NCBI GenBank assembly: GCA_965226495.1
Contig: OZ245365.1
Span: 1,504,001 to 1,568,000 of the forward strand
Direction of reading: 5' to 3'
DNA from: Candidatus Marinacidobacterales bacterium
GTDB taxonomy: Bacteria > Acidobacteriota > Vicinamibacteria > Marinacidobacterales > DATDRI01
DNA: 64,000 nt
Each line of letters begins with the position of its first letter. The stretch's first letter is position 1. Made by a program: the position numbers and the translations under genes. The notes beneath the pieces are model-generated. The model searched no databases and was not told the DNA's origin. It saw only the letters and a list, made by a program, of their open reading frames with translations. Below are positions 3,446-28,527 of the stretch, one piece after another.

Positions 3446-3709
3446 ATGACCGATAAAAGGAACTGCGTCTACAACGCGAGCGGGGAGGCTCAAGCGCAGC
3501 AGATCCGTGCCTTCTTGGAGGCCAATGAGATCCCATGCTCGTTTCAGGGTGAAGCGCTGCGGAAGACTCACGGCTTCACCGTGGACGGTCTAGGCATGGT
3601 GGAAATCCACGTGCCCGAGGCGTTCGTGGAGCAGGCACGCGAGCTTCTGGCCGTCGCGGAGTCGGGCGAGCTGAGTCTTGCGGAAGACGAAGACGTCGAC
3701 GAAGCTTGA
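3446..3709 (+). CDS. DUF2007 / putative signal-transducing protein
   Basis: A..IRAFLEANEIPC...G.VEIHVPE...EQARELL pattern; start chosen at ATG 3446. Confidence 0.8.
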   Translation: MTDKRNCVYNASGEAQAQQIRAFLEANEIPCSFQGEALRKTHGFTVDGLGMVEIHVPEAFVEQARELLAVAESGELSLAEDEDVDEA

Positions 3710-3880
3710 AAACCCAGTGTGCAGCGTCCGATGCGTCGCCGACTGCCCCTGTTCGGGAAGAGGGCGCCTGCCGACATCGATAATGGTAACGCGACGTTTC
3801 GGCGTCGGCCAGGTCTAAGGCGCGCCCGCTTGGGTCGAAAGGGGGGCGCTCACCTGAACTCTAAGGGCATTCTGTCTGAC

Positions 3881-4273
3881 CTAGGCGATGCCCCGGCGGG
3901 GGCTAAGGTCAGTTTTGGCTGCCGCTTTGGTCGTAGTTTTGGCTGCCGCTTTGGTCGTAGTTTTGGCTGCCGCTTTGGTCGTAGTTTTGGCTGCCGCTTT
4001 GGTCGTAGTTTTGGCTGCCGCTTTGGTCGTAGTTTTGGCTGCCGCCTTGGTCGTAGTTTTCGATGTCGTGCTTGTCGCAGCCTTCTTGCGACCTCCCCTT
4101 CGGCGTTTCGGAGGGGGCTCGTCGCTAGACGCGAGGCTGACGATGTCGGTAACGAATTTTTTCTTCCCGTGCTCGTCAAACTCGATCGTTGTGTATTGTG
4201 GGTCGACCTCGGTGATGACACCCAGGCCGTATTTCTGGTGGTTCACTCTCGACGTAACTGGCATCGATTTCAT
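3881..4273 (-). CDS. stand-alone PcrA/UvrD-type Tudor domain with Lys/Ala/Thr histone H1-like tail
   Basis: RVNHQKYGLGVITEV...TIEFDEHGKKKF resembles the RV.H.KFG.G.V...V.F...G.K motif, followed by PPPKRRRGGRKK and (KTTTKAAA)x6. Confidence 0.7.
   Translation of the reverse strand: MKSMPVTSRVNHQKYGLGVITEVDPQYTTIEFDEHGKKKFVTDIVSLASSDEPPPKRRRGGRKKAATSTTSKTTTKAAAKTTTKAAAKTTTKAAAKTTTKAAAKTTTKAAAKTTTKAAAKTDLSPRRGIA
3911..4060. repeat. 24-bp coding tandem repeat, 6 copies plus a partial copy
   Basis: AGTTTTGGCTGCCGCTTTGGTCGT repeated head to tail without spacers; one substitution in the last full copy. Confidence 0.97.
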
Positions 4274-4397
4274 TGGGCTCTTTCTGAATAGGCGGACAGT
4301 AACGCAATATTCTATCCGCTTTGGCGGTCAATAGCAAGTCGTGTATTCGGTGCGTCTTACGGGGAGACTTTGCACCATATCCGCGTTAGGCTTCGGA

Positions 4398-5693
4398 TTA
4401 TCGTGTCGGGAAGTCGGTCGAGACTCCGAAGCCAAAGACGAGCCGATTCTTGGTAAACAGGAAGAAGTTCGACTGGCGATCCAGATAGTCGGCCGACACG
4501 TACGCCCTCCAGAATCCTCCAATACTATGGTTGATGCTCAGGGAGTAGATATCGAACCGATCCTCGATGGCTTGCTCGACCAGCTCTCCTTCGTTGTTGA
4601 TGATCTCCGTGGGCCGCGGATAGTTGTTTCGACCAATGATCACGCCGGGCGTGAAGTAAAAGGAGCGGGTAACCCAAACGTCGACCTCACCTCCGAAGCG
4701 GTGCTCGATGAAGTACCAATTCCCTGCTACCACTGACGGAAAGGTGTCGCGGGAGTAGATCGTCCTGACATCGAACCGCTCACCCATCTGTGTGAGCACA
4801 TCCACGGACCCGACGAGTCCCGAGTACTCGGGTTGTAGCACGAACTTGGGGACCATGTGCTTGTAGCCTATCAGCGCCTGCCCGCTCACGTTGGATTGCG
4901 GCCTGAATTCGAAACCGCCCTCCGCTCGGTAGGCCTGTCCGTCTCGTAGCGATGCGGCCTCATCGAAATCCATGAGCTGATACGACCCCTCGATGACCGC
5001 GGAGGTCTTCGAGCTGAGGTGTCGCGTAAAGCGAAGGGCGTAACTGTGCTCGGTTCGGTTCAGCAGCTCCGTTGAACGGAGCGGACTCGCGAACACGTCT
5101 TGATATTGGAGGCGATTGTGACGGTAGCCCAAAGTCAGTAGATGGCGTGTTCCGAGGGATAGGTCCATCTCTGCCAGGAGCGTGTTTTGTCGACGGTCGG
5201 CAGGAATGTCGAACTCGCTGGAGGGCCTCGTCTTTCCGTTCCGAAACTCGTCGTAAACCCGGAAGAGGATCTTCCTGCCTCCCACTGCGCCTCCCAGGCG
5301 CGTCACGTTGAAAATATCGCGCAAGCCTGCGACCTGGTTGTAGTAGACGAAATTCACTTCCTCATAGACCTCGAGGAGCGCGTGGTTTTTCAATGGAGTC
5401 ACGACGCGGATCCCAGGGGCGATCCTGGCGGCAAAGTCGTCGATCTGTTCGGTTGCGGAGGCCGAGGAGAGGCTGTTCGAGTCGTAGCCGGCCCCGATAC
5501 GGATCTGCGGTCTCATGCGGAAAGGGCCGAGCGTCCAGAGGCTTTCCTCGATCGCCGAGTCGATTTCAGCCTGCGTCAGGTGCTCGCTCTGCGCGAGAAC
5601 CGGCCATGCATTGAGAATGACTAGCAATGCCGCCGCTAGACTGCCAACGAGGATGGGTTTCGTGGTCAATCGTACTTGGCGCACTTGGCGCAT
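4398..5693 (-). CDS. outer-membrane beta-barrel protein, polysaccharide-export associated type
   Basis: Signal peptide (..VLA|Q), GPFR..P......YDSN N-terminal motif and alternating beta-strand pattern with a near-terminal Phe; start ATG 5693. Confidence 0.7.
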   Translation of the reverse strand: MRQVRQVRLTTKPILVGSLAAALLVILNAWPVLAQSEHLTQAEIDSAIEESLWTLGPFRMRPQIRIGAGYDSNSLSSASATEQIDDFAARIAPGIRVVTPLKNHALLEVYEEVNFVYYNQVAGLRDIFNVTRLGGAVGGRKILFRVYDEFRNGKTRPSSEFDIPADRRQNTLLAEMDLSLGTRHLLTLGYRHNRLQYQDVFASPLRSTELLNRTEHSYALRFTRHLSSKTSAVIEGSYQLMDFDEAASLRDGQAYRAEGGFEFRPQSNVSGQALIGYKHMVPKFVLQPEYSGLVGSVDVLTQMGERFDVRTIYSRDTFPSVVAGNWYFIEHRFGGEVDVWVTRSFYFTPGVIIGRNNYPRPTEIINNEGELVEQAIEDRFDIYSLSINHSIGGFWRAYVSADYLDRQSNFFLFTKNRLVFGFGVSTDFPTR

Positions 5694-6058: not shown

Positions 6059-7783
6059 GTGTCCACTCACGTTGTCGAGCCCCATGGGGGCTCACTACAG
6101 AATTTAATGGTTTCCGACGGGCGGGGTGCCGAGATCCAAGCCGCGTCCCGCGATTGGCCTTCCTGGGATCTCACGGGTCGGCAGCTCTGTGACCTCGAGT
6201 TGCTGCTCAACGGTGCCTTTTCACCTTTGAAGGGGTTCATGGGGCGGGCCGATTACGAAAAAGTCTGCGAGTCCATGCGACTAGCCAACGGCTTGCTCTG
6301 GCCCATTCCGATCGTGCTCGACGTGACGGAAGATGTGGCGAAAGGCCTCGAGTCCGGCTCCACCTTGGCGCTCCGGGATCCAGAAGGCGTCATGCTGGCG
6401 GCGTTGCACGTAGATGACGTATGGCAACCCGATCGCACTGCCGAAGTGAAGTCCGTATACGGGACGGAAAACCGCGAGCACCCAGGCGTCGCGCACGTAC
6501 TCGAGAGGACGAATCCGTACTATGTGGGTGGAAGACTCGAGGGTCTTCAGCTCCCGATTCATTACGATTTCGGTTCGCTTCGGCTAACGCCCGAAGAGCT
6601 TCGGGCCAATTTCTCCCGGCTCGGCTGGCGACGGGTGGTTGCGTTTCAAACTCGTAACCCGATGCATCGCGCACACTTCGAGCTGACCCTGCGAGCCGCC
6701 AAAGAGGCGGAGACCAACCTCTTGATCCATCCGGTCGTTGGAATGACCAAGCCGGGCGATTTGGATCACTACACCCGCGTTCGCTGTTATCAAGCACTAC
6801 TGCCTCACTACCCGAAGAACACTGTCAAGCTTTCTCTGCTGCCGTTGGCCATGCGTATGGGGGGGCCGAGAGAAGCGGTCTGGCACGCGATCATCCGCAA
6901 GAACTACGGGTGCACCCATCTCATCGTCGGACGAGACCATGCCGGTCCGGGTAGCGACTCGAAGGGGAAGCCCTTCTATGGACCCTACGACGCTCAGGAG
7001 CTTCTGAAGAAGCACGAGTCAGAAATCGGCGTCGAAATGGTTCCTTTCAAGATGGTCGTATACGTCGAGGAGCAAGATACCTATTTTCCGGTCGACGAGG
7101 TTTCGGAAGGAACGCGGACCCTCAATATTTCGGGAACCGAGTTGAGAGAGCGACTCGCCGGAGGTAGAGAGATTCCCGGCTGGTTTACCTTCCCCGACGT
7201 GGCGCAAGAGTTACAGCGTACCCATCCCCCACGACACAAGCAGGGATTCACCGTTTTCTTTACCGGGCTCTCCGGCGCTGGAAAGTCCACTATCGCCAAC
7301 GTGCTCCTGGTCAAGTTTCTGGAGCTGGGTGGCCGTCCGGTAACGCTTCTGGACGGAGACATTGTCCGCAAAAACTTGTCGTCTGAGCTGGGTTTTTCGA
7401 AAGAGCATCGAGACATCAACATCCTCCGTATCGGTTATGTGGCGTCCGAGATATCACAAAACGGCGGCATAGCCATCTGCGCTCCCATCGCTCCGTATGA
7501 GAACGTACGTCGCGAAGTGCGTAGCATGATCGAGAAGGTCGGCGGGTTCTGCCTGGTCCACATCGCGACGCCTCTCGAAGTTTGTGAGCAGCGGGATCGA
7601 AAGGGCATGTACGCCAAGGCTCGAGCGGGCATCATTAAAGAGTTCACAGGAATATCGGATCCCTATGAAGCACCTCCGGCGTCGGAGGTGACCGTCAACA
7701 CCACGGACATGAGCCCGGAGGAAGCGGCCAACCAGATCATGCTGCACCTGGAACGGCAGGGCTATATAGGCGTCACGAGCTAG
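6059..7783 (+). CDS. sat: bifunctional sulfate adenylyltransferase / adenylylsulfate kinase (Sat-CysC)
   Basis: QTRNPMHRAH and GRDHAG in the ATP sulfurylase part; GLSGAGKST, LLDGD and FTGISDPYE in the APS kinase part; GTG start with GAGGAG RBS. Confidence 0.96.
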   Translation: MSTHVVEPHGGSLQNLMVSDGRGAEIQAASRDWPSWDLTGRQLCDLELLLNGAFSPLKGFMGRADYEKVCESMRLANGLLWPIPIVLDVTEDVAKGLESGSTLALRDPEGVMLAALHVDDVWQPDRTAEVKSVYGTENREHPGVAHVLERTNPYYVGGRLEGLQLPIHYDFGSLRLTPEELRANFSRLGWRRVVAFQTRNPMHRAHFELTLRAAKEAETNLLIHPVVGMTKPGDLDHYTRVRCYQALLPHYPKNTVKLSLLPLAMRMGGPREAVWHAIIRKNYGCTHLIVGRDHAGPGSDSKGKPFYGPYDAQELLKKHESEIGVEMVPFKMVVYVEEQDTYFPVDEVSEGTRTLNISGTELRERLAGGREIPGWFTFPDVAQELQRTHPPRHKQGFTVFFTGLSGAGKSTIANVLLVKFLELGGRPVTLLDGDIVRKNLSSELGFSKEHRDINILRIGYVASEISQNGGIAICAPIAPYENVRREVRSMIEKVGGFCLVHIATPLEVCEQRDRKGMYAKARAGIIKEFTGISDPYEAPPASEVTVNTTDMSPEEAANQIMLHLERQGYIGVTS

Positions 7784-7996: not shown

Positions 7997-8026
7997 GTTG
8001 ACCCGCAAGATGGTCTCTTCTTCCGC

Positions 8027-8164
8027 TAATCCCTCTCCCTTTGGGAGAGGGCCTGGGTGAGGGTGGAACGCTCTTCATCCGTTAATGCCTAACCCCTCAC
8101 GGTAGACTGCGGCCGTCAAGATACGCTGTGCCAAAGAAAAACGTTGCCAGACGGCGGGTGAGGG
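8027..8164. repeat. two members of the dispersed CCCTCTCCC/GGGAGAGGG..GGGTGAGGG REP-like family
   Basis: 8027-8063 is nearly identical to 45312-45346; the 19-mer GCCAGACGGCGGGTGAGGG (8146-8164) is identical to 47115-47133. Confidence 0.8.
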
Positions 8165-8311
8165 CAACGGTCGTCTTCGTGGCCGGCGTTCAAAACCATC
8201 CTCACATTCGCAACAGCTTCCGCGGCGGGTGGAACGGCCGGGTAGGTTAGAATGTTCTTCGGCTCTCCCGTGAGCAAATCGAGATTTCATTGAGGAACAG
8301 GTGACTTTGTT

Positions 8312-9094
8312 GTGAGCAACCATGATGTGGAGGCGCGGAGAGAGGATCTCGAGCGCATCAAGAAGGCGCTAGACGAGTCGGCGCGAATCGCTAGTTCTTT
8401 TACGCCGGACAGATTCGAGACCGAGCAGAAGGGGTCTCGTGGTCCCGTCACGGCAGCTGACCGTGCGGTGAACGAGTTTCTACTGGAGACACTTCCTCGC
8501 GACGGGGACGGTTGGCTCTCGGAGGAAACCGTCGATGAGCCCAGCCGTCTGGATCGGCGGAGGGTTTGGGTTGTCGATCCCATCGACGGCACGTTGGAGT
8601 TCGTAGAAGGAATCCCCGAATGGTGTGTCTCGATTGGGCTCGTGGAGGACGGGCGGGCAGTGGCGGGGGGGATTTGCAATCCCGCCGCCGGCGAGGTCTT
8701 CCTTGGCTCGGTGGAGACAGGCATCAGCTTTAACGGCGAGGCGTTGGAGGTTCCCGTGCGACGGGACACCCAGGACCAATTGGTTCTTGCGAGTCGCAGT
8801 GAGATTAAGCGCGGGGAATGGGCCGCCTACGAGAGTCGAGGGTTCACGATTCAACCGATGGGCTCGGTGGCCTATAAGTTGGCTCGAGTGGCGGCAGGAC
8901 TAGCCAATGCGACGTGGACGCTGGTTCCCAAGCATGAGTGGGACGTAGCCGCTGGAGCGGCACTCGTCGTCGCTTCGGGCGGCGTCGTGAAGACGCTCGG
9001 GGGGGAGGTACCGGTTTTCAACCGCTCCAAGCCCAAACTCACAGGCCTCTTGGCCTTTGGTCCCGGCCAAGAGCACCTTTTCGAAACAGCCTAG
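8312..9094 (+). CDS. cysQ: 3'(2'),5'-bisphosphate nucleotidase CysQ (inositol monophosphatase family)
   Basis: PVTAAD, LSEE, VDPIDGT, MGSVAYK and K.EWDVAAG; next to sat-cysC. Confidence 0.9.
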   Translation: MSNHDVEARREDLERIKKALDESARIASSFTPDRFETEQKGSRGPVTAADRAVNEFLLETLPRDGDGWLSEETVDEPSRLDRRRVWVVDPIDGTLEFVEGIPEWCVSIGLVEDGRAVAGGICNPAAGEVFLGSVETGISFNGEALEVPVRRDTQDQLVLASRSEIKRGEWAAYESRGFTIQPMGSVAYKLARVAAGLANATWTLVPKHEWDVAAGAALVVASGGVVKTLGGEVPVFNRSKPKLTGLLAFGPGQEHLFETA

Positions 9095-19215: not shown

Positions 19216-20007
19216 CTATGCGAGGTCTTGTTCGGTTACACGGGTGCGGGCGATGGAGCGGGCCTTGCCGGTCGATTCGTCGATGTCAACCACCACCGCA
19301 TTCAGCCACGGGTTTTTCGTGGCGGTCTCGAACTTGGACGGTATGCCTTTGAGAAAGCGAGCTAGAGAGGGTTCGCGTTCGATCCCGATGACCGAGTCGA
19401 AGGGGCCACACATCCCGACGTCGGTGATGTACGCAGTTCCTCCGGGAAGCACTCGCTCATCCGCAGTAGGGATGTGAGTGTGCGTTCCGACCACCGCCGA
19501 AACCTTGCCATCCAGAAACCAACCCATGGCCATTTTTTCCGACGTGGCTTCGCCGTGCATGTCCACGAAGATGACACGGGACTCCTTTGCTAAACGAGCC
19601 ACTTCCTGCTCGGCGGCCCGAAACGGGCAGTCGGTAACCGGCATGAAGACTCTACCCTGGACGTTGAGTACGGCCACCGGTGTGCCGGATGCGGTGTGGG
19701 CAACGTAGCGGCCCGTTCCTGGGGAATTCGGCGGGTAGTTGATGGGACGAATGAGTCGAGGCTCCCGGCCCAAGTAACTGATGATCTCTTTCTTGTCCCA
19801 GATGTGGTTTCCCGAAGTGAGCACGTCGATCCCGCTCGCAAAAAATTGGTCAGCGATATCAGGTGTGACCCCGAACCCGGCTGCTGCGTTTTCGACATTG
19901 GCAATGACCAGATCGAATTCCTGATCCTCGCGTAGCTTCTCTAGGCCCCGCTTGAGGATCTGTCTACCAGCCTTACCAACGACGTCTCCGGCGAAAAGGA
20001 TCTTCAC
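19216..20007 (-). CDS. TIGR00282 / YmdB-like metallophosphoesterase
   Basis: GDVVG, NVENAA.G.G, TSGNH, D.HGEATSEK and GTHTH. Confidence 0.95.
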   Translation of the reverse strand: MKILFAGDVVGKAGRQILKRGLEKLREDQEFDLVIANVENAAAGFGVTPDIADQFFASGIDVLTSGNHIWDKKEIISYLGREPRLIRPINYPPNSPGTGRYVAHTASGTPVAVLNVQGRVFMPVTDCPFRAAEQEVARLAKESRVIFVDMHGEATSEKMAMGWFLDGKVSAVVGTHTHIPTADERVLPGGTAYITDVGMCGPFDSVIGIEREPSLARFLKGIPSKFETATKNPWLNAVVVDIDESTGKARSIARTRVTEQDLA

Positions 20008-22499
20008 GTCGCTACCGGCCGACGGGTGCGAACGGAAGGAGCGAGCTTGGGGCGAGCCGTTCGTGAGGAGCGAGAGCGTTGGCTGCCGCTGCGCTGCCCT
20101 ACCAACACGAGTTTGAGCACTTCTTCGACTTGATCAACGAGCTCGAGCTTCATATCCTTCTTGACATAGTCGGGAATGTCTTCGACCTCTTTGCGGTTGA
20201 GTCGCGGCAAGACGACCGTGTCTAGCTTGGCGCGTCGAGCCGCCAGGACCTTCTCCTTGATGCCTCCGATGGGGAGCAGGTTGCCCCGGAGGGTGATCTC
20301 TCCGGTAAGTGCCATGTTCCTGCGGACCGGCGTGTTGGTCAGAACCGACACCATCGCCACCGCGATCGTGATGCCAGCGGAGGGACCGTCCTTGGGGATC
20401 GCGCCCTCGGGTACGTGGATATGCAGATCGTGCGTGGAGAAAATTTCTTCGTCGATTTGGAACTGGCGCGCTCGCGAACGGGCGTAGGAGAGAGCCGCCT
20501 GTGCCGACTCTTTCATCACCTCTCCGAGCTTGCCGGTGAGTATCAGATTTCCTTTTCCTTTCATTGCCGTCGCCTCGACGAACAAGACGTCTCCACCAGT
20601 CGGGGTCCACGCCAGCCCGGTTGCGATACCGATCCGGTCCTTCTTGAGCATTTCGTCGGGCAGTACCTTCGGTGAGCCGAGAAAGTTGGACAGGTTCTTG
20701 GCCGTTACTTTAGTCAGCTCCTGCCTGCCTTCCGCGACCTGCTTGGCTACCTTACGGCAAACTCGGGCGACCTCGCGTTCCAAGTTTCTCAGACCCGCCT
20801 CGCGTGTGTATAGAGCGATGATCTGCCGAATGGCGGGATCGGCGATGGTCAACTCTTTTGTGGTGAGCCCGTTTTCGTCGAGCTGTTTGGGTATGAGGTG
20901 CCGTTTCGTGATTTGAAGTTTTTCCTCCTCGGTATAGCCCGACAGCTCGAGGAGCTCCATTCGGTCGAGAAACGCCGGCTGGATGGGATCGAGCTGATTC
21001 GCCGTTGTGATGAACATGACGTTGGAAAGATCGAACGTCGTGCCGAGGTAGTTGTCCCGGAAGGCGTTGTTCTGCTCAGGATCGAGAACTTCCAGCAAGG
21101 CGGAGCTGGGGTCGCCACGGTAGTCGGCGCCCACTTTGTCCACCTCGTCCAGCATGAAGACCGGGTTATTGGAGCCAGCCTGCTGAATGCCCTGAATGAT
21201 TCTACCGGGCATGGAGCCGACGTAGGTGCGGCGGTGACCGCGGATTTCCGCCTCATCGCGCACGCCCCCGAGCGACACCCGATGGAACTTCCGGCCTATC
21301 GCCCGGGCGATGGAACGCCCGAGAGACGTCTTGCCCACTCCCGGGGGGCCGACGAAGCAGAGGATCGGTCCCTTCATTTTCTTCTTGAGCTTGCGGACCG
21401 CCAAATACTCCAAGATCCGCTCCTTGACCTTTTCTAGCCCGTAGTGGTCCTCGTCGAGAATCGCCTTCACCTGTTTCATGTCCAGGTTGTCTTTGGTTTC
21501 GCGACTCCAGGGAAGGGTGACCATGACCTCGAGATGGTTTCGCAACGTGGCGGTCTCGGCGGAGTCGGGGTGCATGCGCTCGAGTTTTCCGATTTGCCGG
21601 TTCACTTCGGTATAGATGTCTTTCGGCATCTTCGCCCGCCGCGCCTTGTCTCGCAGCTGGCGGACCTCCTCGGACAGTTCGTTTCCTTCGCCAAGCTCGG
21701 TTTGAATAGCCTTCAGCTGCTGCCGCAAAAAGAACTCGCGCTGCGTGCGGTCCATCTCGCCTTTGGCCTGCGAGCTGATCTGCTGCTGCATCGTTAGGAC
21801 CTCGAGCTCCTTGGTGACGAGCTCGTAGACTTTGCGCAGTCTTTCCGCGGGGTCGATCGTATCCAGCACTTCCTGGGCACCGTCGACCTTGAGGTCTAGA
21901 TTCGATACGGCTAGATCGGCCAACCGTCCGGGGTCCTCTAAGTTGGCCGCAATAACCATGACCTCGGGCGAGATGGCCTTACCGAGATTGGCGGATTTCT
22001 CGAGCGCGCCCTTGACGTTTCGCATGAGCGCCTCGAGCTCGAGGGATTCGGACTCCCACTCGGATTCTTTTACCGTAGAGAGCCGAGCTTGAAAGAAAGG
22101 GTCGGCGTGCGAGAACTCTTCGACGACCGCTCGGTGCATGCCCTGCACGAGGACGCGGATGCGCCCGTCGGGCAGCTTGAGCATGCGCATGATGACCGCC
22201 ACCGTACCCATTCGGTACAAGTCGTCGGGCTCGGGGTCTTCTTTTTCCTGATCTCTCTGGGCGAGGAGCAGGATCATGCGGTTTTCGGCTAAGGCGGAGT
22301 CGACGGCCTTGATCGATTTGTCACGGCTCACGTAGAGCGGGACGATCATGAAAGGGAAGATCACGATGTCACGCAGGGGTAACACCGGGAGCAAATCGGG
22401 GATTTGAACGAGATCCAGCTCTTGCTCTTGGAGCGGTTCCTGCTCTTCTTGGTTGTCGGGTTTCTCGGAACTGTCAGGTCGGTCTGGGTCTTCAGTCAT
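20004..22499 (-). CDS. lon: ATP-dependent protease La (Lon)
   Basis: LON N-terminal domain, [27 protein letters not shown] and GGIKEK. Confidence 0.98.
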
Positions 22500-22563
22500 A
22501 GTCAGATCTGCCGAGCTTCTTCACTGACATCACGGCTAGGCCAGTGAGACAGTTGGCGTTGCG

Positions 22564-23019
22564 TTAGCCTTGTTCCTTGATTTTCAGCCGAATCTTGCTG
22601 CCGCGTCGATCTTTGAGCTTGGGTATGGTTATCGTGAGCACTCCCTGGCCTAGCTCCGCGTCGGCTTTGGCAAGGTCCACCGCTTGATCGATGTAGATGG
22701 AGCGTGTGAACTTGCCAAAGCTTCTTTCCATGCACAGGTAGCCGTTGTTCCGTTGCTCGGTCTTCGGTTCTTTCTTTTCCCCGGAGACAATCAACTTGTG
22801 CCCTTGAAAAGCGGCCGTGAGGTCTCTCTTGGTCATGCCGGGAGCTTCCACCTTGATGACCAACGAGTCTTTGGTCTCGAATACGTCGAAGCTGGGAAGC
22901 CACTCGCCCAGACCTACTCCGGCTTCGCTGCGCTCGAAGTGCGTGAGCTGCTCGAAGAGCCTGCTAATCTCCTTCTGGAGCGCCGTCATCTCCGGGAAGG
23001 CGTCCCGTCTTTCAACCAT
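22564..23019 (-). CDS. Hsp20/alpha-crystallin small heat shock protein
   Basis: P..DV.ET, ERSFGKFTRS and GVLTITIPK. Confidence 0.95.
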   Translation of the reverse strand: MVERRDAFPEMTALQKEISRLFEQLTHFERSEAGVGLGEWLPSFDVFETKDSLVIKVEAPGMTKRDLTAAFQGHKLIVSGEKKEPKTEQRNNGYLCMERSFGKFTRSIYIDQAVDLAKADAELGQGVLTITIPKLKDRRGSKIRLKIKEQG

Positions 23020-23055
23020 GGATCCCTCTGAAAAATAATAACTTTCGAATGAACG

Positions 23056-23084
23056 ACCTTAACACATCGGCTACAACCGGTCAA
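23056..23084 (-). promoter_or_regulatory. sigma70-type promoter for hsp20-lon
   Basis: TTGACC-17 nt-TAAGGT with an extended -10 TG. Confidence 0.6.
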
Positions 23085-23147
23085 GAAACGGGAGTTTACC
23101 GCGATCGAGCGTACTTTCGATGAAGATAAAGAGGGGGCGAACCGGAA

Positions 23148-24881
23148 TCAGACGCGTCGCACGACGATCAGCGTTCGGTCGTCGGTGGGACGACCCGTTG
23201 CATAGGCATCGACTTCTTGCTGGATGGTTACCATCATCTCCGGCGCTGAGAGCTTGGCGTGGTTTTTCAACACCTCCGCTAAGCGGTCCTCACCGTATTC
23301 CTCGCCGTCTTCTCCCCAGCTTTCACTGATGCCGTCGGTGAAAACCACTAGTATGTCGCCGGGTTCGAGCGTGGTCTCGCCTTGCTCGTACGGTACGCTC
23401 TCGAACATCTCGACAACGGTGCCGCCTACTTCCAGCCGGTCGGCCTCGCCAGACTTCGCCCGATAGACAATGGGCGGTATGTGGCCTGCATTGACGTAAA
23501 GTAGTTCGCCGGTCTTGGGGTCGAGATCGCCGAGGAAGAACGTCACATATGCATGTTCTGGCGTGTTGTGGAACATCACTTGGTTGGTGTGAGACATGAT
23601 AGACGCCATGTCGTTCTCTTCCTGCTGGCATGCGGAATGAACGGTGGCCCTCAAAACCATCATCATTAGAGCTGCCCCGGCGCCTTTCCCCGAGACGTCG
23701 CCGAGCGCGAAAGCGAGGCGGCCAGAGGGCTTCGGGATGTAATCGAAGTAGTCGCCGCCGATCGTATAGCAGGGCGTATTCGTTCCCGCGATATCCCAAC
23801 CTTCGATTAGTGGAGCTTTGCTGGGAAGGAGGTTTTGCTGGATGTCGCCAGCGAGAGCGAGCTCATGCTCCATCCGCTTCTTCTCGATCATTTGCTCGAC
23901 CAGCTGGGCGTTCTCCAACTTGATTGCCGCGACGTTGGCCAAGGAAGTAAGAAGCGAGAGGTCGTCTTGAGTGAAAATGCTTTCTTGAATCAAGCGGTCG
24001 ACATAGATGAGGCCGGTGACCGCCTTGTTGTTCCAAAGTGGTACGCACATCGCGGAGCGGATACCGACGGAGACGATCGAATCTTGCGATTTGAATCTGG
24101 GGTCGCTCAGCGCGCTGCTGGTTAGGATGGAGACCTTTTCTCCAATTACTTTGTCGGCGATGGTGCGGCTGAAAGTGATCTCCTCCCTGGTTTCTTCGGG
24201 CTTGTCGGAGTTCGTGCGGACCGACTTGACTTCTAGACCGCCGCCGTCGTCCTTGGTTAACATCAACGCTCCGCGTTCCGGTTTCACGACCTTGAAGGCA
24301 AGCTCCAAGATGAAATCTAGCAGCTCGTTGACCGGTCGGTCGCTGATGAGGGCCATACTGGCTTCGCTGAGGGCGGCCAAGATCTGGTTCTGTTTGATGA
24401 TTGCGGACGAATCGGTGGAGCCCGTTTTGGGCCCCGACCGCTTGGTGGGTCCGGCGACGTTATCCCAGGTGTCCTCTTGCCCGCGGGCCTGAGCCAACAG
24501 GTGTTCGGTCGGAACCACTACGGTGCCATCGAGGTCGAGGTCACTGCTCGGGCTTTCTTCGAGCCGGACGCTGCCCGAAGGCTCCTGCATAAAGGTCAAT
24601 TGGTGATCGCCTAGGGTGATGGTGTCTTCGTCGTCGAGCCGCGCCTTGTCGGCGATACGACTACCGTTGACCAGCGTGCCATTCCGGCTCTCCAGGTCGT
24701 GGATGGAGTACGCGTCGCTTTCTTCGCGAATCTCGGCGTGGTGGCGCGACAGCCACTGGTCGGGCAAGACGAGGTCGTTACGCTTTGAGCGGCCTATTGT
24801 GAGGACCGGCTTGTTAAGGGGCACGGTAAACGGCTCCCCGTGCAGGGGACGAACCCGCAACTCGGGGAATTTTTTTGTCAC
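23148..24881 (-). CDS. FHA-GAF-PP2C (SpoIIE-like) serine/threonine phosphatase
   Basis: IGRS..ND...SR.HA..S.NGT (FHA); IRSAMCVPL..GLIYVD (GAF); GGDYFD, DVSGKG, FTDGI and DDRT (PP2C). Start uncertain (GTG 24881 or ATG 24929). Confidence 0.93.
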   Translation of the reverse strand: MTKKFPELRVRPLHGEPFTVPLNKPVLTIGRSKRNDLVLPDQWLSRHHAEIREESDAYSIHDLESRNGTLVNGSRIADKARLDDEDTITLGDHQLTFMQEPSGSVRLEESPSSDLDLDGTVVVPTEHLLAQARGQEDTWDNVAGPTKRSGPKTGSTDSSAIIKQNQILAALSEASMALISDRPVNELLDFILELAFKVVKPERGALMLTKDDGGGLEVKSVRTNSDKPEETREEITFSRTIADKVIGEKVSILTSSALSDPRFKSQDSIVSVGIRSAMCVPLWNNKAVTGLIYVDRLIQESIFTQDDLSLLTSLANVAAIKLENAQLVEQMIEKKRMEHELALAGDIQQNLLPSKAPLIEGWDIAGTNTPCYTIGGDYFDYIPKPSGRLAFALGDVSGKGAGAALMMMVLRATVHSACQQEENDMASIMSHTNQVMFHNTPEHAYVTFFLGDLDPKTGELLYVNAGHIPPIVYRAKSGEADRLEVGGTVVEMFESVPYEQGETTLEPGDILVVFTDGISESWGEDGEEYGEDRLAEVLKNHAKLSAPEMMVTIQQEVDAYATGRPTDDRTLIVVRRV

Positions 24882-25267
24882 CAATAAGGCTACTCTCTCG
24901 AAGGTCGGGCTATTGAGCCACGCAGTCATTGATTCATTGAGTCAATGAATGGCCAGAAACAATTATAAGTAACACTGGCCTTCGGTTGCTGTCAAGACGC
25001 TGCAATTCCAGATGGTTAACCCGAGTGCTCGATGGGCGTGGTGAGCCGGCGCTCGGAAGGGAGCGGCCGTCGATCAGTACAGGTGGTGCAGACCGTGGAG
25101 CAGGTGGGGGCTTACTCTCTTCCTGGCTTTAGGTTGCGGTGGGATTTTAGGGTGCGTGGATGATGAAGCGGGATAGGGAGAATGCCGAAACCTTGGCGTC
25201 CCCTATTGATGGCCATGTGTTTCCCTTAAGAATAAACCCCCGTCCTGCACGAATCTCCGCCTAGTGA

Positions 25268-25298
25268 CCCTCTCCCGGAGGGAGAGGGATTAAAGGAA
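25268..25298. repeat. REP-like family member
   Basis: CCCTCTCCCGGAGGGAGAGGGATTAAAGGAA. Confidence 0.75.
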
Positions 25299-25324
25299 CA
25301 AGAGTCCACTATTATCGTGCCGTG

Positions 25325-25519
25325 AAAAGGAGCCCAAGAGAGACCTGGCTTGGCCATCGCAGCCTCTCAGTGGAGGGCCAGCGGATGCCTCTGAGAGGGC
25401 TCAGCGTCCCACGATCGGGAGCGGCCAGTTTCTATCCGGAGGTAGGACCCCAGGTCTCCCCCGAGCTTGCCGACTTTCCACCGGCATCGCTGCCGGCAGT
25501 CGCTCAGCTTCCCTTCGCC
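25325..25519 (-). ncRNA. candidate sigma54-dependent structured RNA of about 190 nt
   Basis: 18-bp closing stem 25331-25348/25450-25467 whose four non-Watson-Crick pairs are G-U only on the minus strand; GCGA (GNRA) hairpin at 25472-25501; nested inner helices; a U4 tract after the stem. Confidence 0.6.
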
Positions 25520-25529
25520 TCACATGAGA

Positions 25530-25546
25530 GGCAAAGGCTGTTCCAG
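25530..25546 (-). promoter_or_regulatory. sigma54 (-24/-12) promoter
   Basis: Minus strand CTGGAACAGCCTTTGCC has GG-10 nt-GC spacing; AT-rich IHF-like tract at about 25573-25596. Confidence 0.6.
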
Positions 25547-25732
25547 GAAGATCCGTCAAGTGACCCGTCACGTTTTATTGATAACAAAGGGTTTTCGCCC
25601 GCAACTTAGAGAAGGGGAGATCTGGCTCCTTTGGCATTTGGGCGTAGCCGCGCACTCCGCTGAGCCTAATGCCGCAGAATCGGGCGGGAGAGTGAAGGGG
25701 TGTTGTGGGCCGACCGCTTGGAGGGAACGACT

Positions 25733-26923
25733 TCAGGAAGACTTGGGTGACGTCGGCTCACTTTCAGTTGAGTCGCCGCTCAGCTCGGGGGTCAATTCCG
25801 GGGTTGGCTCTGGTGTTATGTTTTCCGTCGGTTCTTTCTCTGCAGGCTCTGCAGGCTCTGCAGGCGGTCCGGGCGATTCGTCACTTGTTGGTTCACCAAC
25901 TGGTGGCGTCGATAGGTCCGTCGCGGAAGGCTCTGGAGAATTGGGAGCCGTCTCGACTTCGGGGGTCTGCGGCGCGTCCTCACCATCTTCAGTGACGTCA
26001 AGAGTAGGCGTATCGGGAGTAGCGGGCCCCGCAATTTCATCTGCGGCTTGATGTGCCGCAGGCTGTTCTTCTTCTGGTTTTGGCTCTGGTACTGGCTCCG
26101 TCGCCACATCTCCCACTGCATCTTGATTTGTTTGTTCGACTGGGAGTGTTAAAACAGGCGTCTCAATAATAACGGGGGCAACGGGGGTGCCGGGAGTAAT
26201 GGCAGCGTTCTCGATCGGCGCCGGCATTACCGGAGTTCCGCCTTCGTCCTCGCTCACTCCTGCCGCGGCGGTCGAGGAAGCTTCCTCCTCTTCTTCCTTC
26301 GCGTTCAAAGCCGCGTCTTCGGCTGCCTTTTGCGCCTTGACCTGGCGCCTTCTCTCCTTCGCCTCTTCCCGTTCCTTGCGGCGATGGGTGTTCATCGCCT
26401 CTTGTAGGATTCGGGTGATAAGAGCCTGTGCCTCGGCCCGCGTGCAGTCCTTGGAAAGCGCAACCTCCGCGGCCAGCCAGCTACGGATCTTTCGGCGACT
26501 CTGCTCGTCTTCTCGACTCAGCCCAGTTGTTTGCCTAAGGAGATGAAGTCGTTTCAATCCTTTCGCCAAGGCGCGTGGGGACCCCTCACTCACGAGATTT
26601 TCGATCAGGCCCTCCAGCTCTTTTTCCTCCTCCAGAGGCTGCTCGAACTCGGCAGCGAGCTCGGCTTCAATCTCTTCGAGTTTCCTGCCGGCGGGCCGGA
26701 GTCCAAGCTTAGGTACACGCTCCGTAGGGATAAGAATCCGGCTGCCCTCCTCGAGGTCCTCCAGTTCGACGAGCCTCTTCCCAGGGGCGGCCCGGTCCTC
26801 GGTGAGTCCCCGATAGACGCAATGTCCGACTTTTGGATAAAAAACAGGCTCGCCCGGTTCAGGAAGCCCGGCAAGGGTGGGATCACCTTGATCCACGAGC
26901 ACCTCCTTTTCGCCCATAAACAT
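25733..26923 (-). CDS. divergent CarD-family protein with a coiled coil and a long acidic Pro/Glu-rich tail
   Basis: PGEPVFYPKVGHC...ILIPTERVPKLGLRP resembles the CarD RID; GS...LAK.LKRL...LS..D....RK.R..LA.EVAL resembles the CarD CTD. Confidence 0.8.
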   Translation of the reverse strand: MFMGEKEVLVDQGDPTLAGLPEPGEPVFYPKVGHCVYRGLTEDRAAPGKRLVELEDLEEGSRILIPTERVPKLGLRPAGRKLEEIEAELAAEFEQPLEEEKELEGLIENLVSEGSPRALAKGLKRLHLLRQTTGLSREDEQSRRKIRSWLAAEVALSKDCTRAEAQALITRILQEAMNTHRRKEREEAKERRRQVKAQKAAEDAALNAKEEEEEASSTAAAGVSEDEGGTPVMPAPIENAAITPGTPVAPVIIETPVLTLPVEQTNQDAVGDVATEPVPEPKPEEEQPAAHQAADEIAGPATPDTPTLDVTEDGEDAPQTPEVETAPNSPEPSATDLSTPPVGEPTSDESPGPPAEPAEPAEKEPTENITPEPTPELTPELSGDSTESEPTSPKSS

Positions 26924-26957
26924 ATCACGTCTACTCCGTTCTGGAACTAAAAGGGCG

Positions 26958-27320
26958 CTAAAAGCGGCAGTAGCGTCCTGGGACGGACTCGAGTTCGTGG
27001 CAAGAAGCGGTGCCGATTTCGGGTAGCGAGGACGCTTCTCCGAGATGTTGGCAGGACGGAGGTACTTCCAAATCGACAGCTCCGAGAGTTCGCCGGACTA
27101 GACAGCGTAGGGAGTTGCTCGGGTAGTCCTCCGTCCAAACCGCGGGTCTAAGCGAGGGGCCCGACTTGGTGCTTCCAAGGTAGTGCGGCCGAATGGCCGG
27201 GTGGTGCGGGGCCTCGAGGTTCGCCGAGGGTGAGACGGAGGCTAGGGAAGGGAAGAGCCGGTGGGTGAAATGGACGACGGCCCCGATTCCCAGGGCGAGA
27301 ACGAAGATGGTGTTTCGCAT
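26958..27320 (-). CDS. hypothetical small protein with an N-terminal hydrophobic segment
   Basis: Strong RBS GAGGAGG before the ATG; MRNTIFVLALGIGAVV; no family recognised. Confidence 0.45.
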   Translation of the reverse strand: MRNTIFVLALGIGAVVHFTHRLFPSLASVSPSANLEAPHHPAIRPHYLGSTKSGPSLRPAVWTEDYPSNSLRCLVRRTLGAVDLEVPPSCQHLGEASSLPEIGTASCHELESVPGRYCRF

Positions 27321-27334
27321 GACTGCCTCCTCAT

Positions 27335-27614
27335 AAAAGTGATGGCCAGGCCATCGAAGGCACCGCCGGCAGGGGGACCGGCAGGAACCCCCGAAAGCAG
27401 GGAGACAGACAAGCTCCAGGAAAGGAGTTCCGAGGCCAAGGGTTGGGGAGCGGGCCCCGAAAACGGCAATTAAAGCCCCGCCACCTTCCTGCTGAGCTTA
27501 TCGAGCTTGGCGGAGGGCGGTGGAGACCATGAAAACTAAAATGCCGACGCGACTTCCCTCAGACTTTTCTCCCTGCTGAAAGGCGCCGTCCTGTTTGGGG
27601 GGAGGATTGAGCGC
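27335..27614 (-). ncRNA. candidate structured leader or sRNA of about 280 nt
   Basis: AGCAGGGAGA/TCTCCCTGCT closes a 182-nt branched hairpin (27396-27577) with minus-strand G-U pairs; terminator-like GATGGC-ctg-GCCATC-ACTTTT just before the RBS. Confidence 0.5.
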
Positions 27615-27620
27615 TGGGCC

Positions 27621-27650
27621 ACTCTATTTCCTCCGGCTTGGGCGTGTCAA
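27621..27650 (-). promoter_or_regulatory. sigma70-type promoter
   Basis: TTGACA-18 nt-TAGAGT. Confidence 0.55.
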
Positions 27651-27699
27651 GCCTGGCATCCGGTAAAGGGTCGAGGCGGACCGAGTCGATTCTCGGCGC

Positions 27700-28527
27700 T
27701 TAATTGGCCATCCCGATCTGCAGTCGCAACCGATCGATGATCCCTTCTACCCGTTCCCGATCCGGGGCATCCGGTTTTAGCTTCAGGTATCTGGCAAGCT
27801 CCCCAACCCCTTCGAGAGGACGGCCGACGCCGGAAAGGAGAATGCCTCTATCACGGACTTCGGACGGCGAGTCGGGGACGAGCAACAGCATTCGTTCGAC
27901 GGCCGCCAGGGCTCTAGCATGTTCGCGGCGATTCACATAGATCCCCTTCAGGTTATTGAGTATTCGGAATAGCATCAGACGGGGTGTGGTGCTCTGCAGC
28001 TGCCTGGGGTGGAACTCCAATTTGTCTTTGAAGTTCTGCTTCAGCCGTTCCCGACAATCGTCGTGAGTCAGGATCTTGCCACGATAAAAAACGTCGATCA
28101 GGATCTCTCCTTCTTCCGTCACGTGTTTCAACAAAAAGTGGCCGGGAAATCCGATCCCTTGTAGCTCGAAGCCGACTCGTCTCGCCACCTCTCCGTAGAC
28201 CGCGGACAAGGTAATAGGAATCCCGATTCGTCGGTCGATCACCTCATTGAGATAACTGTTGCGCGGGTCGTAGTACTCCTTGTCATCGCCGCGGAACCCC
28301 TCTTCGTCGAACAATACTTGGTTGAGCCTGGCCACGGTTTCATGCGGTCCGGCGTCTGCATAGAGACGCTGGCGAACCTGCTCCGCCATGTCATCGAGCT
28401 TCCCAAGGTAGTCGTCCACCATCAGATCCGGGTACTCCTCGGCGGCGATGAGCAAGGCAGTCCGATCGATCTCGATCGCCTTGTCACCGCCCGAAACGAT
28501 GCGTGCGAAGGCGCCCCGAGCACTCAT
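27700..28527 (-). CDS. SirB1/YchA family transglutaminase-like protein with TPR
   Basis: GF.G....YYDPRNSYLNEV..RR.GIPITLS, G.GFPGHFL, R.LNNLK and E.RDRG. Confidence 0.93.
   Translation of the reverse strand: MSARGAFARIVSGGDKAIEIDRTALLIAAEEYPDLMVDDYLGKLDDMAEQVRQRLYADAGPHETVARLNQVLFDEEGFRGDDKEYYDPRNSYLNEVIDRRIGIPITLSAVYGEVARRVGFELQGIGFPGHFLLKHVTEEGEILIDVFYRGKILTHDDCRERLKQNFKDKLEFHPRQLQSTTPRLMLFRILNNLKGIYVNRREHARALAAVERMLLLVPDSPSEVRDRGILLSGVGRPLEGVGELARYLKLKPDAPDRERVEGIIDRLRLQIGMAN

Follow-up and report, generated by a model that had tools for sequence, protein, structure and literature searches.

The 64-kb stretch of DNA from a Candidatus Marinacidobacterales bacterium analyzed here (contig OZ245365.1; hereafter, the window) carries, on the minus strand, a gene for a CarD-like protein that is bracketed by two intergenic regions with extensive predicted base pairing. 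Comparison with relatives indicates that both flanks hold genuine structured RNAs that are conserved and preceded by promoters; they are new but of known kinds. The explanation that we consider probable, with some reserve, is that an older gene pair, which encodes a CarD-like protein lacking the tryptophan typical of that family and a PP2C phosphatase, acquired one lineage-specific RNA element on each side, and that the two elements are independent of each other. The upstream element would be a leader acting in cis, and the downstream element a regulatory RNA transcribed from a sigma54 promoter.

Comparative evidence for two structured RNAs

A single sequence alone does not beat chance; the sigma54 promoter pattern, for instance, has 1 match in the window compared with 0.79 expected. 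Support for the RNAs comes instead from comparison. The upstream leader (represented by model R2) and the downstream RNA (model R1, built from 4 sequences) are both 63–70% identical to five loci from other genera, whereas the CarD-like gene is 34–48% identical at its four-fold degenerate sites. Across 9 distinct sequences for each RNA, 99.0% of the cells of the leader helices are paired, as opposed to 43–55% when the partners are slid, and the corresponding values for the downstream RNA are 95.9% and 33–50%. The initial annotation of this DNA had proposed examining the homologous flanks for covariation, and compensatory base changes were found for both RNAs. In the leader, 6 pairs change on both sides, compared with 2.5 ± 1.0 in shuffles (2 of 500 reach this number), and in the downstream RNA, 11 pairs do so, compared with 5.9 ± 1.6 (again 2 of 500), with a covariation score of 0.188 versus 0.144 in the shuffles (0 of 500). 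A further leader helix, P3 (AGGGAA paired with UUYCCU), was seen in single folds but is excluded from these counts because it is off by one column in two rows. One row of each alignment comes from an unpublished genome (G007), which was also used in building R1 and R2 and leaves 8 other distinct sequences per RNA; this genome also counts once in the tallies given below for the distribution of the CarD-like paralogue (41 genomes), R1, and R2.

Repeats or Rfam families unrelated to the CarD-like gene had been named as an alternative source of the paired regions. Each RNA is single-copy in the genome, and the Rfam scans came up empty: there were no matches over the whole window at the gathering score, none on three homologous loci at E ≤ 1, and only chance matches (Pab91 and MIAT) at E ≤ 10 over positions 24900-27800.

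The distribution of both RNAs is limited to a single family. The families of the order are denoted here f1, f2, and f3, and the genome of the window belongs to f1, genus g1. Model R2 matches 7 of the 55 genomes of the order, namely, the window's genome, 5 of the 7 other f1 genomes (including G001 and G002, from the same genus), and, weakly, one f3 genome. Model R1 matches 5 of the 55, with strong matches in 4 of the 8 f1 genomes, the window's genome included; the fifth, a 21.6-bit match in G042, was treated as chance, as were the R2 matches in G044 (30.6 bits) and on contig C843 of G007 (22.2 bits). Neither R1 nor R2 has a match in any of the 19 f2 genomes.

Sequences from this locus were also present in RNA libraries. 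A metatranscriptome contig of 260 nucleotides (nt) covers the leader at 27333-27592 with 100% identity, and a second contig from the same run lies over 26871-27072, at the junction of the CarD-like gene and orf120, a small open reading frame (ORF) that separates it from the leader. Two other RNA libraries yielded contigs inside the CarD-like gene. There was no contig over 25320-25545, the region of the downstream RNA and its promoter, in the three libraries; given that contigs drop rare sequences, this says nothing about expression. Transcription from both promoters, the 3′ ends of the RNAs, their action in cis or in trans, and their targets are all inferred.

Several observations weigh against the explanation proposed here. 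Single-sequence folds gave z-scores of −2.08 (6 of 200 shuffles were as good) and −1.06 (31 of 200), and the pair counts were made on model-fitted alignments, which favor the structures. The 9 distinct sequences of each RNA all come from one family, and such kin are not independent. In the leader, 4 of the 6 helices are without compensatory change, and only helices 5 and 6 covary; among the 20 pairs in those four helices, 15 are invariant, and 19 are either invariant or changed on one side only. The assembled contigs show presence in RNA libraries rather than transcript ends, and carry-over of DNA is possible. Outside genus g1, a canonical intrinsic terminator is found in neither RNA. Furthermore, the intergenic region downstream of the CarD-like gene in G001 and G002 is 270–330 nt long and includes neither a sigma54 box nor the downstream RNA, so that this RNA is dispensable. 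Finally, a target search with the reverse complement of the invariant loop of the downstream RNA, allowing 1 mismatch, returned 80 matches, compared with 99 for the reversed control, and hence showed no enrichment and yielded no target.

The conservation might also reflect protein-binding sites or other constraints at the level of DNA instead of RNA structure. Operator DNA could account for long invariant stretches, for example, the initial ~80 nt of the leader, which are nearly invariant in an element of ~210–230 nt, and the weak z-scores of the single-sequence folds fit this idea. Nevertheless, we regard it as most improbable: in both elements, helices are preserved by compensatory changes on the two sides of a pair, the variable middle hairpin of the leader is kept in shape and not in sequence (a stable hairpin folds in every homologue), and the conserved stretches sit downstream of conserved promoters.

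Organization of the locus

The initial annotation had positioned the sigma70-type promoter, the paired regions, orf120, the CarD-like gene, and the sigma54 box correctly, and all of them were recovered. In minus-strand order, the locus is organized as follows.

27700-28527, minus strand: transglutaminase-like/TPR gene, the first in this order, ahead of the sigma70-type promoter
27621-27650, minus strand: sigma70-type promoter, TTGACA-18-TAGAGT, predicted to drive the leader/orf120/CarD-like transcript
27389-27617, minus strand: upstream structured 5′ leader RNA (model R2, 177.9 bits)
27333-27355, minus strand: terminator-like hairpin GATGGCC-TGG-CCATC with T tract, immediately upstream of the ribosome-binding site of orf120
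26958-27320, minus strand: orf120, 120 amino acids (aa)
25733-26923, minus strand: CarD-like gene, 396 aa, with the CarD/CdnL fold in residues 1-197
25633-25678, minus strand: conserved element ~90–150 nt 5′ of the sigma54 box, identified by eye
25570-25585, minus strand: IHF-like tract of the TCAA-N4-TT type, between the conserved upstream element and the −24 box
25531-25545, minus strand: sigma54 −24/−12 box TGGAACAGCCTTTGC, TGGAAC-N5-TTTGC
25320-25523, minus strand: downstream structured RNA, ~200 nt (model R1, 185.1 bits)
25267-25314, minus strand: palindrome CCCTCTCCC-TCC-GGGAGAGGG, similar to repetitive extragenic palindromic (REP) sequences, just 3′ of the downstream RNA and specific to this genome
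24962-24995, minus strand: TTGACA-type promoter-like element before the FHA-GAF-PP2C gene, identified by eye
23148-24929, minus strand: FHA-GAF-PP2C (SpoIIE-type) phosphatase gene, followed by the genes for Hsp20 and Lon

The upstream paired region extends over ~290 nt and runs to the hairpin and T tract at 27355-27333. On the other side of the CarD-like gene, the intergenic region that separates it from the PP2C gene is 803 nt long in the window and comprises an AT-rich tract, the sigma54 box, and the paired stretch of ~200 nt. Both RNAs are closed by helices in which GGGAG(A) pairs with (U)CUCCC or with UCUCUC, in agreement with the initial annotation.

The upstream element is a putative cis leader

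Its sequence and position identify the upstream element as a putative sigma70-promoted structured leader in cis to the CarD-like operon. The 9 distinct leader sequences, which include metagenome loci, come from 9 distinct loci, and in all of these, the leader lies 5′ of the CarD-like gene (with orf120 between the two where present), on the same strand and behind the promoter. This position is maintained where orf120 is deleted (locus L063), which places the leader ~90 nt from the start codon of the CarD-like gene, as well as where an insertion sequence (IS) has entered the operon (G003). The promoter is the sole sigma70-type site in the region 24800-27900, where shuffles average 0.6 sites. By eye, it recurs in 9 of the 9 leader loci as TTGACA (TTGGCA in G001 and TTCGACA in G003) followed by TAnAGT, with a spacing of 17–18 nt.

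The leader is composed of a 5′ hairpin with a C-rich loop, the closing helix GCAGGGAG/CUCCCUGC, the variable hairpin, and a G/C-rich hairpin. The hairpin with the T-rich tail (ACTTCTTTG) that precedes orf120 is kept in G001, whereas all that remains at this site in G002 is the T tract with a weak stem of 4 bp. At this position, the hairpin of the other genera differs and, as judged by eye, lacks the T tract, so that the U tract is confined to genus g1. The leader would set the amount of transcript or of translation that reaches the operon of orf120 and the CarD-like gene; in genus g1, it might do so via the hairpin and U tract ahead of the orf120 ribosome-binding site.

An RNA that stops at this hairpin would be a different matter, namely, a stand-alone small RNA (sRNA), with the CarD-like operon being read from elsewhere. 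The hairpin at 27355-27333 resembles a terminator, and the metatranscriptome contig ends exactly there, with a depth of 4.85 compared with 2.8 at the orf120/CarD-like junction, although this is a weak hint from a single run. We consider a stand-alone sRNA unlikely, given that the U tract is limited to genus g1, that there is no further promoter-like site between 27333 and the start of the CarD-like gene, and that in L063, the element continues up to the start codon of that gene.

The first gene behind the leader, where present, is orf120. Its sequence evolves fast (dN/dS, the ratio of nonsynonymous to synonymous substitution rates, is 0.41–0.50), encodes a hydrophobic N-terminus, and matched no Pfam family. 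The metagenome-assembled genome (MAG) G006 holds two haplotypes (L063 and L078), one with orf120 and the other with a clean deletion of it, and the leader is present in both. The orf120 gene is dispensable.

The downstream RNA and its sigma54 promoter

The box TGGAA(C/T)-N5-(C/T)TTGC precedes the downstream RNA in all 8 distinct full-length loci and is also present in G005. The genome encodes RpoN (216 bits) and 20 strong sigma54 activators (enhancer-binding proteins), none of them in the window. A TCAA-N4-TT-like motif was noted by eye ~30–45 nt 5′ of the box, and we take it to be a putative IHF-type site. In the form TCAA(C/T)NNNTT, a similar motif is found in 6 of 7 distinct full-length relatives (L068 was left out), and the window has the TCAA half only. 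A sigma54 promoter combined with an IHF-like site implies dependence on an enhancer-binding activator. Farther upstream, the conserved element at 25633-25678 may be an activator-binding site or, alternatively, the 3′ end of the CarD-like gene; it is also found in G001 and G002, which have no box.

The downstream RNA is ~200 nt long and ends in CUCCUUUUC. In its consensus structure, a 5′ hairpin is accompanied by a closing helix of 20 bp, which encloses a multi-branch core; CGCUGGCCC is invariant in a hairpin loop, and an unpaired CCUCCGGA is likewise conserved. By eye, no conserved ORF was seen in this region. The 3′ end is made up of a long-range helix and a U-rich tail, and only a weak terminator-like site was found.

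Model R1 gave 12 strong matches of at least 119 bits, which correspond to 9 distinct sequences, one of them truncated at the 5′ end. A scan with an exact pattern found the RNA in the same three MAGs of the genome_contigs set and in 8 metagenome contigs. In these contigs, the PP2C gene is located downstream of the RNA in 8 of 8 cases and the CarD-like gene upstream in 7; the remaining contig starts inside the RNA. G005 retains no more than the sigma54 box and the CGCUGGCCC hairpin, the stem of which is compensated; R1 finds the loop hairpin only (8.3 bits), and this locus was counted as a diverged variant of the downstream RNA by eye only.

The sigma54 promoter together with the IHF-like site would give rise to the multi-branched RNA of ~200 nt under some inducing condition. 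We propose that the product is a conditionally expressed regulatory RNA that would act via its invariant C-rich single strands, that is, the CGCUGGCCC loop and the CCUCCGGA linker. The most likely partners of these strands would be G-rich ribosome-binding regions.

The CarD-like/PP2C gene pair predates the RNAs

In the 19 loci fetched from relatives, the PP2C gene comes after the CarD-like gene, as in the window, in 4 of the 5 loci from f1 and in 10 of 10 from f2, and in 0 of 4 from f3. In f2, at most 150 nt separate the two genes in 8 of the 9 loci in which the distance can be measured. Because f2 has the gene pair with such short gaps and without either RNA, the pair is older than both RNAs. 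Hsp20 and Lon follow PP2C wherever the locus is long enough, and the string of CarD-like, FHA-GAF-PP2C, Hsp20, and Lon genes (20004-24929 in the window for the part behind the CarD-like gene) is conserved in f1 and f2. The PP2C gene has a promoter-like element of its own, TTGACA-N17-TACT(T/A)A(T/A)A, which by eye is highly conserved and is followed by a conserved GTTTCTGGC; genomes without the downstream RNA have kept this element as well.

The proximity of the downstream RNA to this gene string makes it possible, though doubtful, that the RNA is no separate sRNA but the structured 5′ leader of a long, stress-induced, sigma54-dependent transcript that continues into the FHA-GAF-PP2C, Hsp20, and Lon genes, in parallel with transcription from the constitutive TTGACA promoter nearer to the PP2C gene. 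The RNA is on the same strand, ~100–125 nt ahead of the PP2C start in relatives, and has no canonical terminator. PP2C is the downstream gene in all 8 metagenome contigs, and Hsp20 and Lon come next in every contig that is long enough. Sigma54 control of small-heat-shock and lon genes is known from other bacteria. However, conservation is lacking in the stretch that separates the RNA from the PP2C promoter, which amounts to ~325 nt in the window and includes the REP-like repeat there. Moreover, the downstream RNA of G003 has stayed beside the CarD-like gene, whereas the PP2C orthologue, which matches only at residues 9-285, is located ~300 kb away. This break was made by IS elements: the locus (L036) contains an IS630-type DDE_3 transposase gene, a DruA-like ORF, and an IS66 TnpB gene (3670-4761, 6201-7157, and 8026-8727), and the insertion of the IS630-type transposase gene separates orf120 from the CarD-like gene.

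A CarD paralogue without the wedge tryptophan

The initial annotation had described the protein encoded between the two RNAs as a degenerate CarD paralogue, and this description is borne out by the matches to the two-domain CarD/CdnL fold and by the loss of the wedge tryptophan. In a hmmscan of the protein, the Pfam scores for CarD_TRCF_RID and CarD_C are slightly below the cut-offs (21.4 bits each, with cut-offs of 23.0 and 23.1), and in a six-frame search of the genome, the RID domain reaches 25 bits, which is above the Pfam cut-off. A profile of 16 orthologues matches CdnL of M. xanthus (2lwj) with an E value of 4.4e-13 over positions 12-163, thus including both domains. The AlphaFold model has a predicted local distance difference test (pLDDT) score of 88.4, and Foldseek matched it to the CarD chains 4l5g, 4xax, 8hvr_H, and 6edt_M, with E values from 5e-10 to 1e-7 and target-normalized TM-scores (TMt) of 0.77–0.82.

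In the CarD family, a conserved tryptophan at the start of the C-terminal domain acts as a minor-groove wedge in promoter opening. The wedge tryptophan of CdnL and of CarD from M. tuberculosis (Mtb) aligns with a gap or with acidic residues in the CarD-like protein, and tryptophan is absent from the wedge segment, with acidic residues in its place, in 16 of the 16 orthologues. The genome also encodes an ordinary CarD that has kept the wedge tryptophan, as well as Mfd. The N-terminal part of the CarD-like protein is under strong purifying selection (dN/dS 0.07–0.10). It is followed by an acidic, Pro/Thr-rich tail of ~200 aa, the length of which varies. The location of this Thr/Ser/Pro-rich tail beside an FHA-PP2C enzyme suggests possible phospho-regulation.

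Of 41 genomes of the order, 40 have the paralogue, and the single miss is a genome that is 73% complete; a sample of 200 genomes from other parts of the phylum gave 0 matches (E ≤ 1e-15). It is a true paralogue with the CarD/CdnL fold that lacks the wedge tryptophan and is confined to one order. From the other members of the CarD/CdnL family, with which it shares the two-domain fold, it differs by its single-sequence Pfam scores slightly below the cut-offs, the missing tryptophan, and the additional acidic tail.

Relationship between the RNAs and the protein

The initial annotation had gone further and had combined the parts into one system, in which both RNAs and the CarD-like protein would bind or modulate RNA polymerase (RNAP) in the manner of 6S or Ms1 RNA or would switch between sigma70 and sigma54 programs. 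In its favor, 5 distinct loci hold all three parts side by side, the CarD fold of the protein is one that interacts with RNAP, and each sigma type is represented by one promoter. Yet, such a module is very unlikely. The genome has its canonical 6S RNA (RF00013) outside the window (G000:C1:1663744-1663919, 107.6 bits), which leaves the 6S/Ms1-like reading unsupported. The consensus structures of both RNAs have 2–3 branch points, as opposed to a rod with a central bubble. The two RNAs are unrelated, as neither matches the model of the other, and RNAduplex predictions between them are no better than those for shuffles in 6 of 6 genomes. Nor are they inherited together: G001 and G002 have the leader without the downstream RNA, and the CarD-like protein occurs without RNA matches in f2 (0 of 19 genomes for both R1 and R2) and in f3 (one weak match for each model among 28 genomes). 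Because the RNAs are non-homologous and not co-inherited, and because the gene pair exists without them, the linkage between the parts continues to be one of adjacency only, as the initial annotation had acknowledged, except for the leader, which lies in cis to the CarD-like operon.

A tighter functional connection, in which the CarD-like protein, the leader, the sigma54-driven RNA, and the FHA-GAF-PP2C phosphatase constitute one stress switch, also seems quite unlikely. The CarD-like protein would then occupy the CarD site of RNAP without opening the promoter. With similarly low likelihood, one or both RNAs would bind the CarD-like protein or its mRNA, and the phosphorylated Thr-rich tail would be read and erased by the FHA-PP2C partner. 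We treat the two RNAs as separate additions to the older gene pair.

Comparison with known RNAs

The two RNAs of this locus resemble 6S RNA (RF00013) and mycobacterial Ms1 in their size range, and they have an RNAP-related gene as a neighbor. They differ from 6S RNA in being multi-branched, without the rod and central bubble; moreover, RF00013 has no match in the window at the gathering score and none at E ≤ 10 in 24900-27800. The upstream element resembles structured cis-regulatory 5′ leaders (riboswitch or attenuator candidates) in that it is conserved, promoter-proximal, and always located 5′ of the same operon. In genus g1, a hairpin with a U tract stands before the first ribosome-binding site. 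The element matches no riboswitch or leader in Rfam.

Among the sigma54-dependent small RNAs are the Qrr RNAs of Vibrio. The downstream RNA shows no sequence or Rfam similarity to Qrr or to GlmY/GlmZ and differs from them in being ~200 nt long and multi-branched and in having no clear terminator. Its nearest analogue is the sigma54/activator/IHF architecture of glmY/glmZ in Enterobacteriaceae: GlmY and GlmZ are described as sRNAs whose sigma54 promoters depend on both an activator and IHF (PMC3045617), and the layout predicted here, with a −24/−12 promoter, an IHF-type site, and a conserved upstream element, is the same. Control of carD at the RNA level is represented in mycobacteria by the antisense RNA AscarD (PMC8820732), as opposed to the sense leader proposed here.

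In the literature, no published description of either RNA element was found at the level of titles and abstracts, and no counterpart described in the phylum was found for the candidate sigma54/IHF-dependent regulatory RNA. The two elements add RNA families that are absent from Rfam and come from a barely studied, largely uncultured acidobacterial class. In addition, the analysis defines an order-specific CarD paralogue that is without the promoter-opening tryptophan and is fixed beside the FHA-GAF-PP2C, Hsp20, and Lon genes. The promoters, models R1 and R2, and the protein family offer handles on the diversification of RNAP accessory factors and on regulation outside model organisms.

A repeat next to the downstream RNA

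The palindrome at 25267-25314 is perfect and belongs to a dispersed repeat, with 32 further partial copies in the genome, which are 27–53 nt long and 79–100% identical to it. Strain variants in a DNA run diverge within this palindrome, at positions 25298 and 25309.

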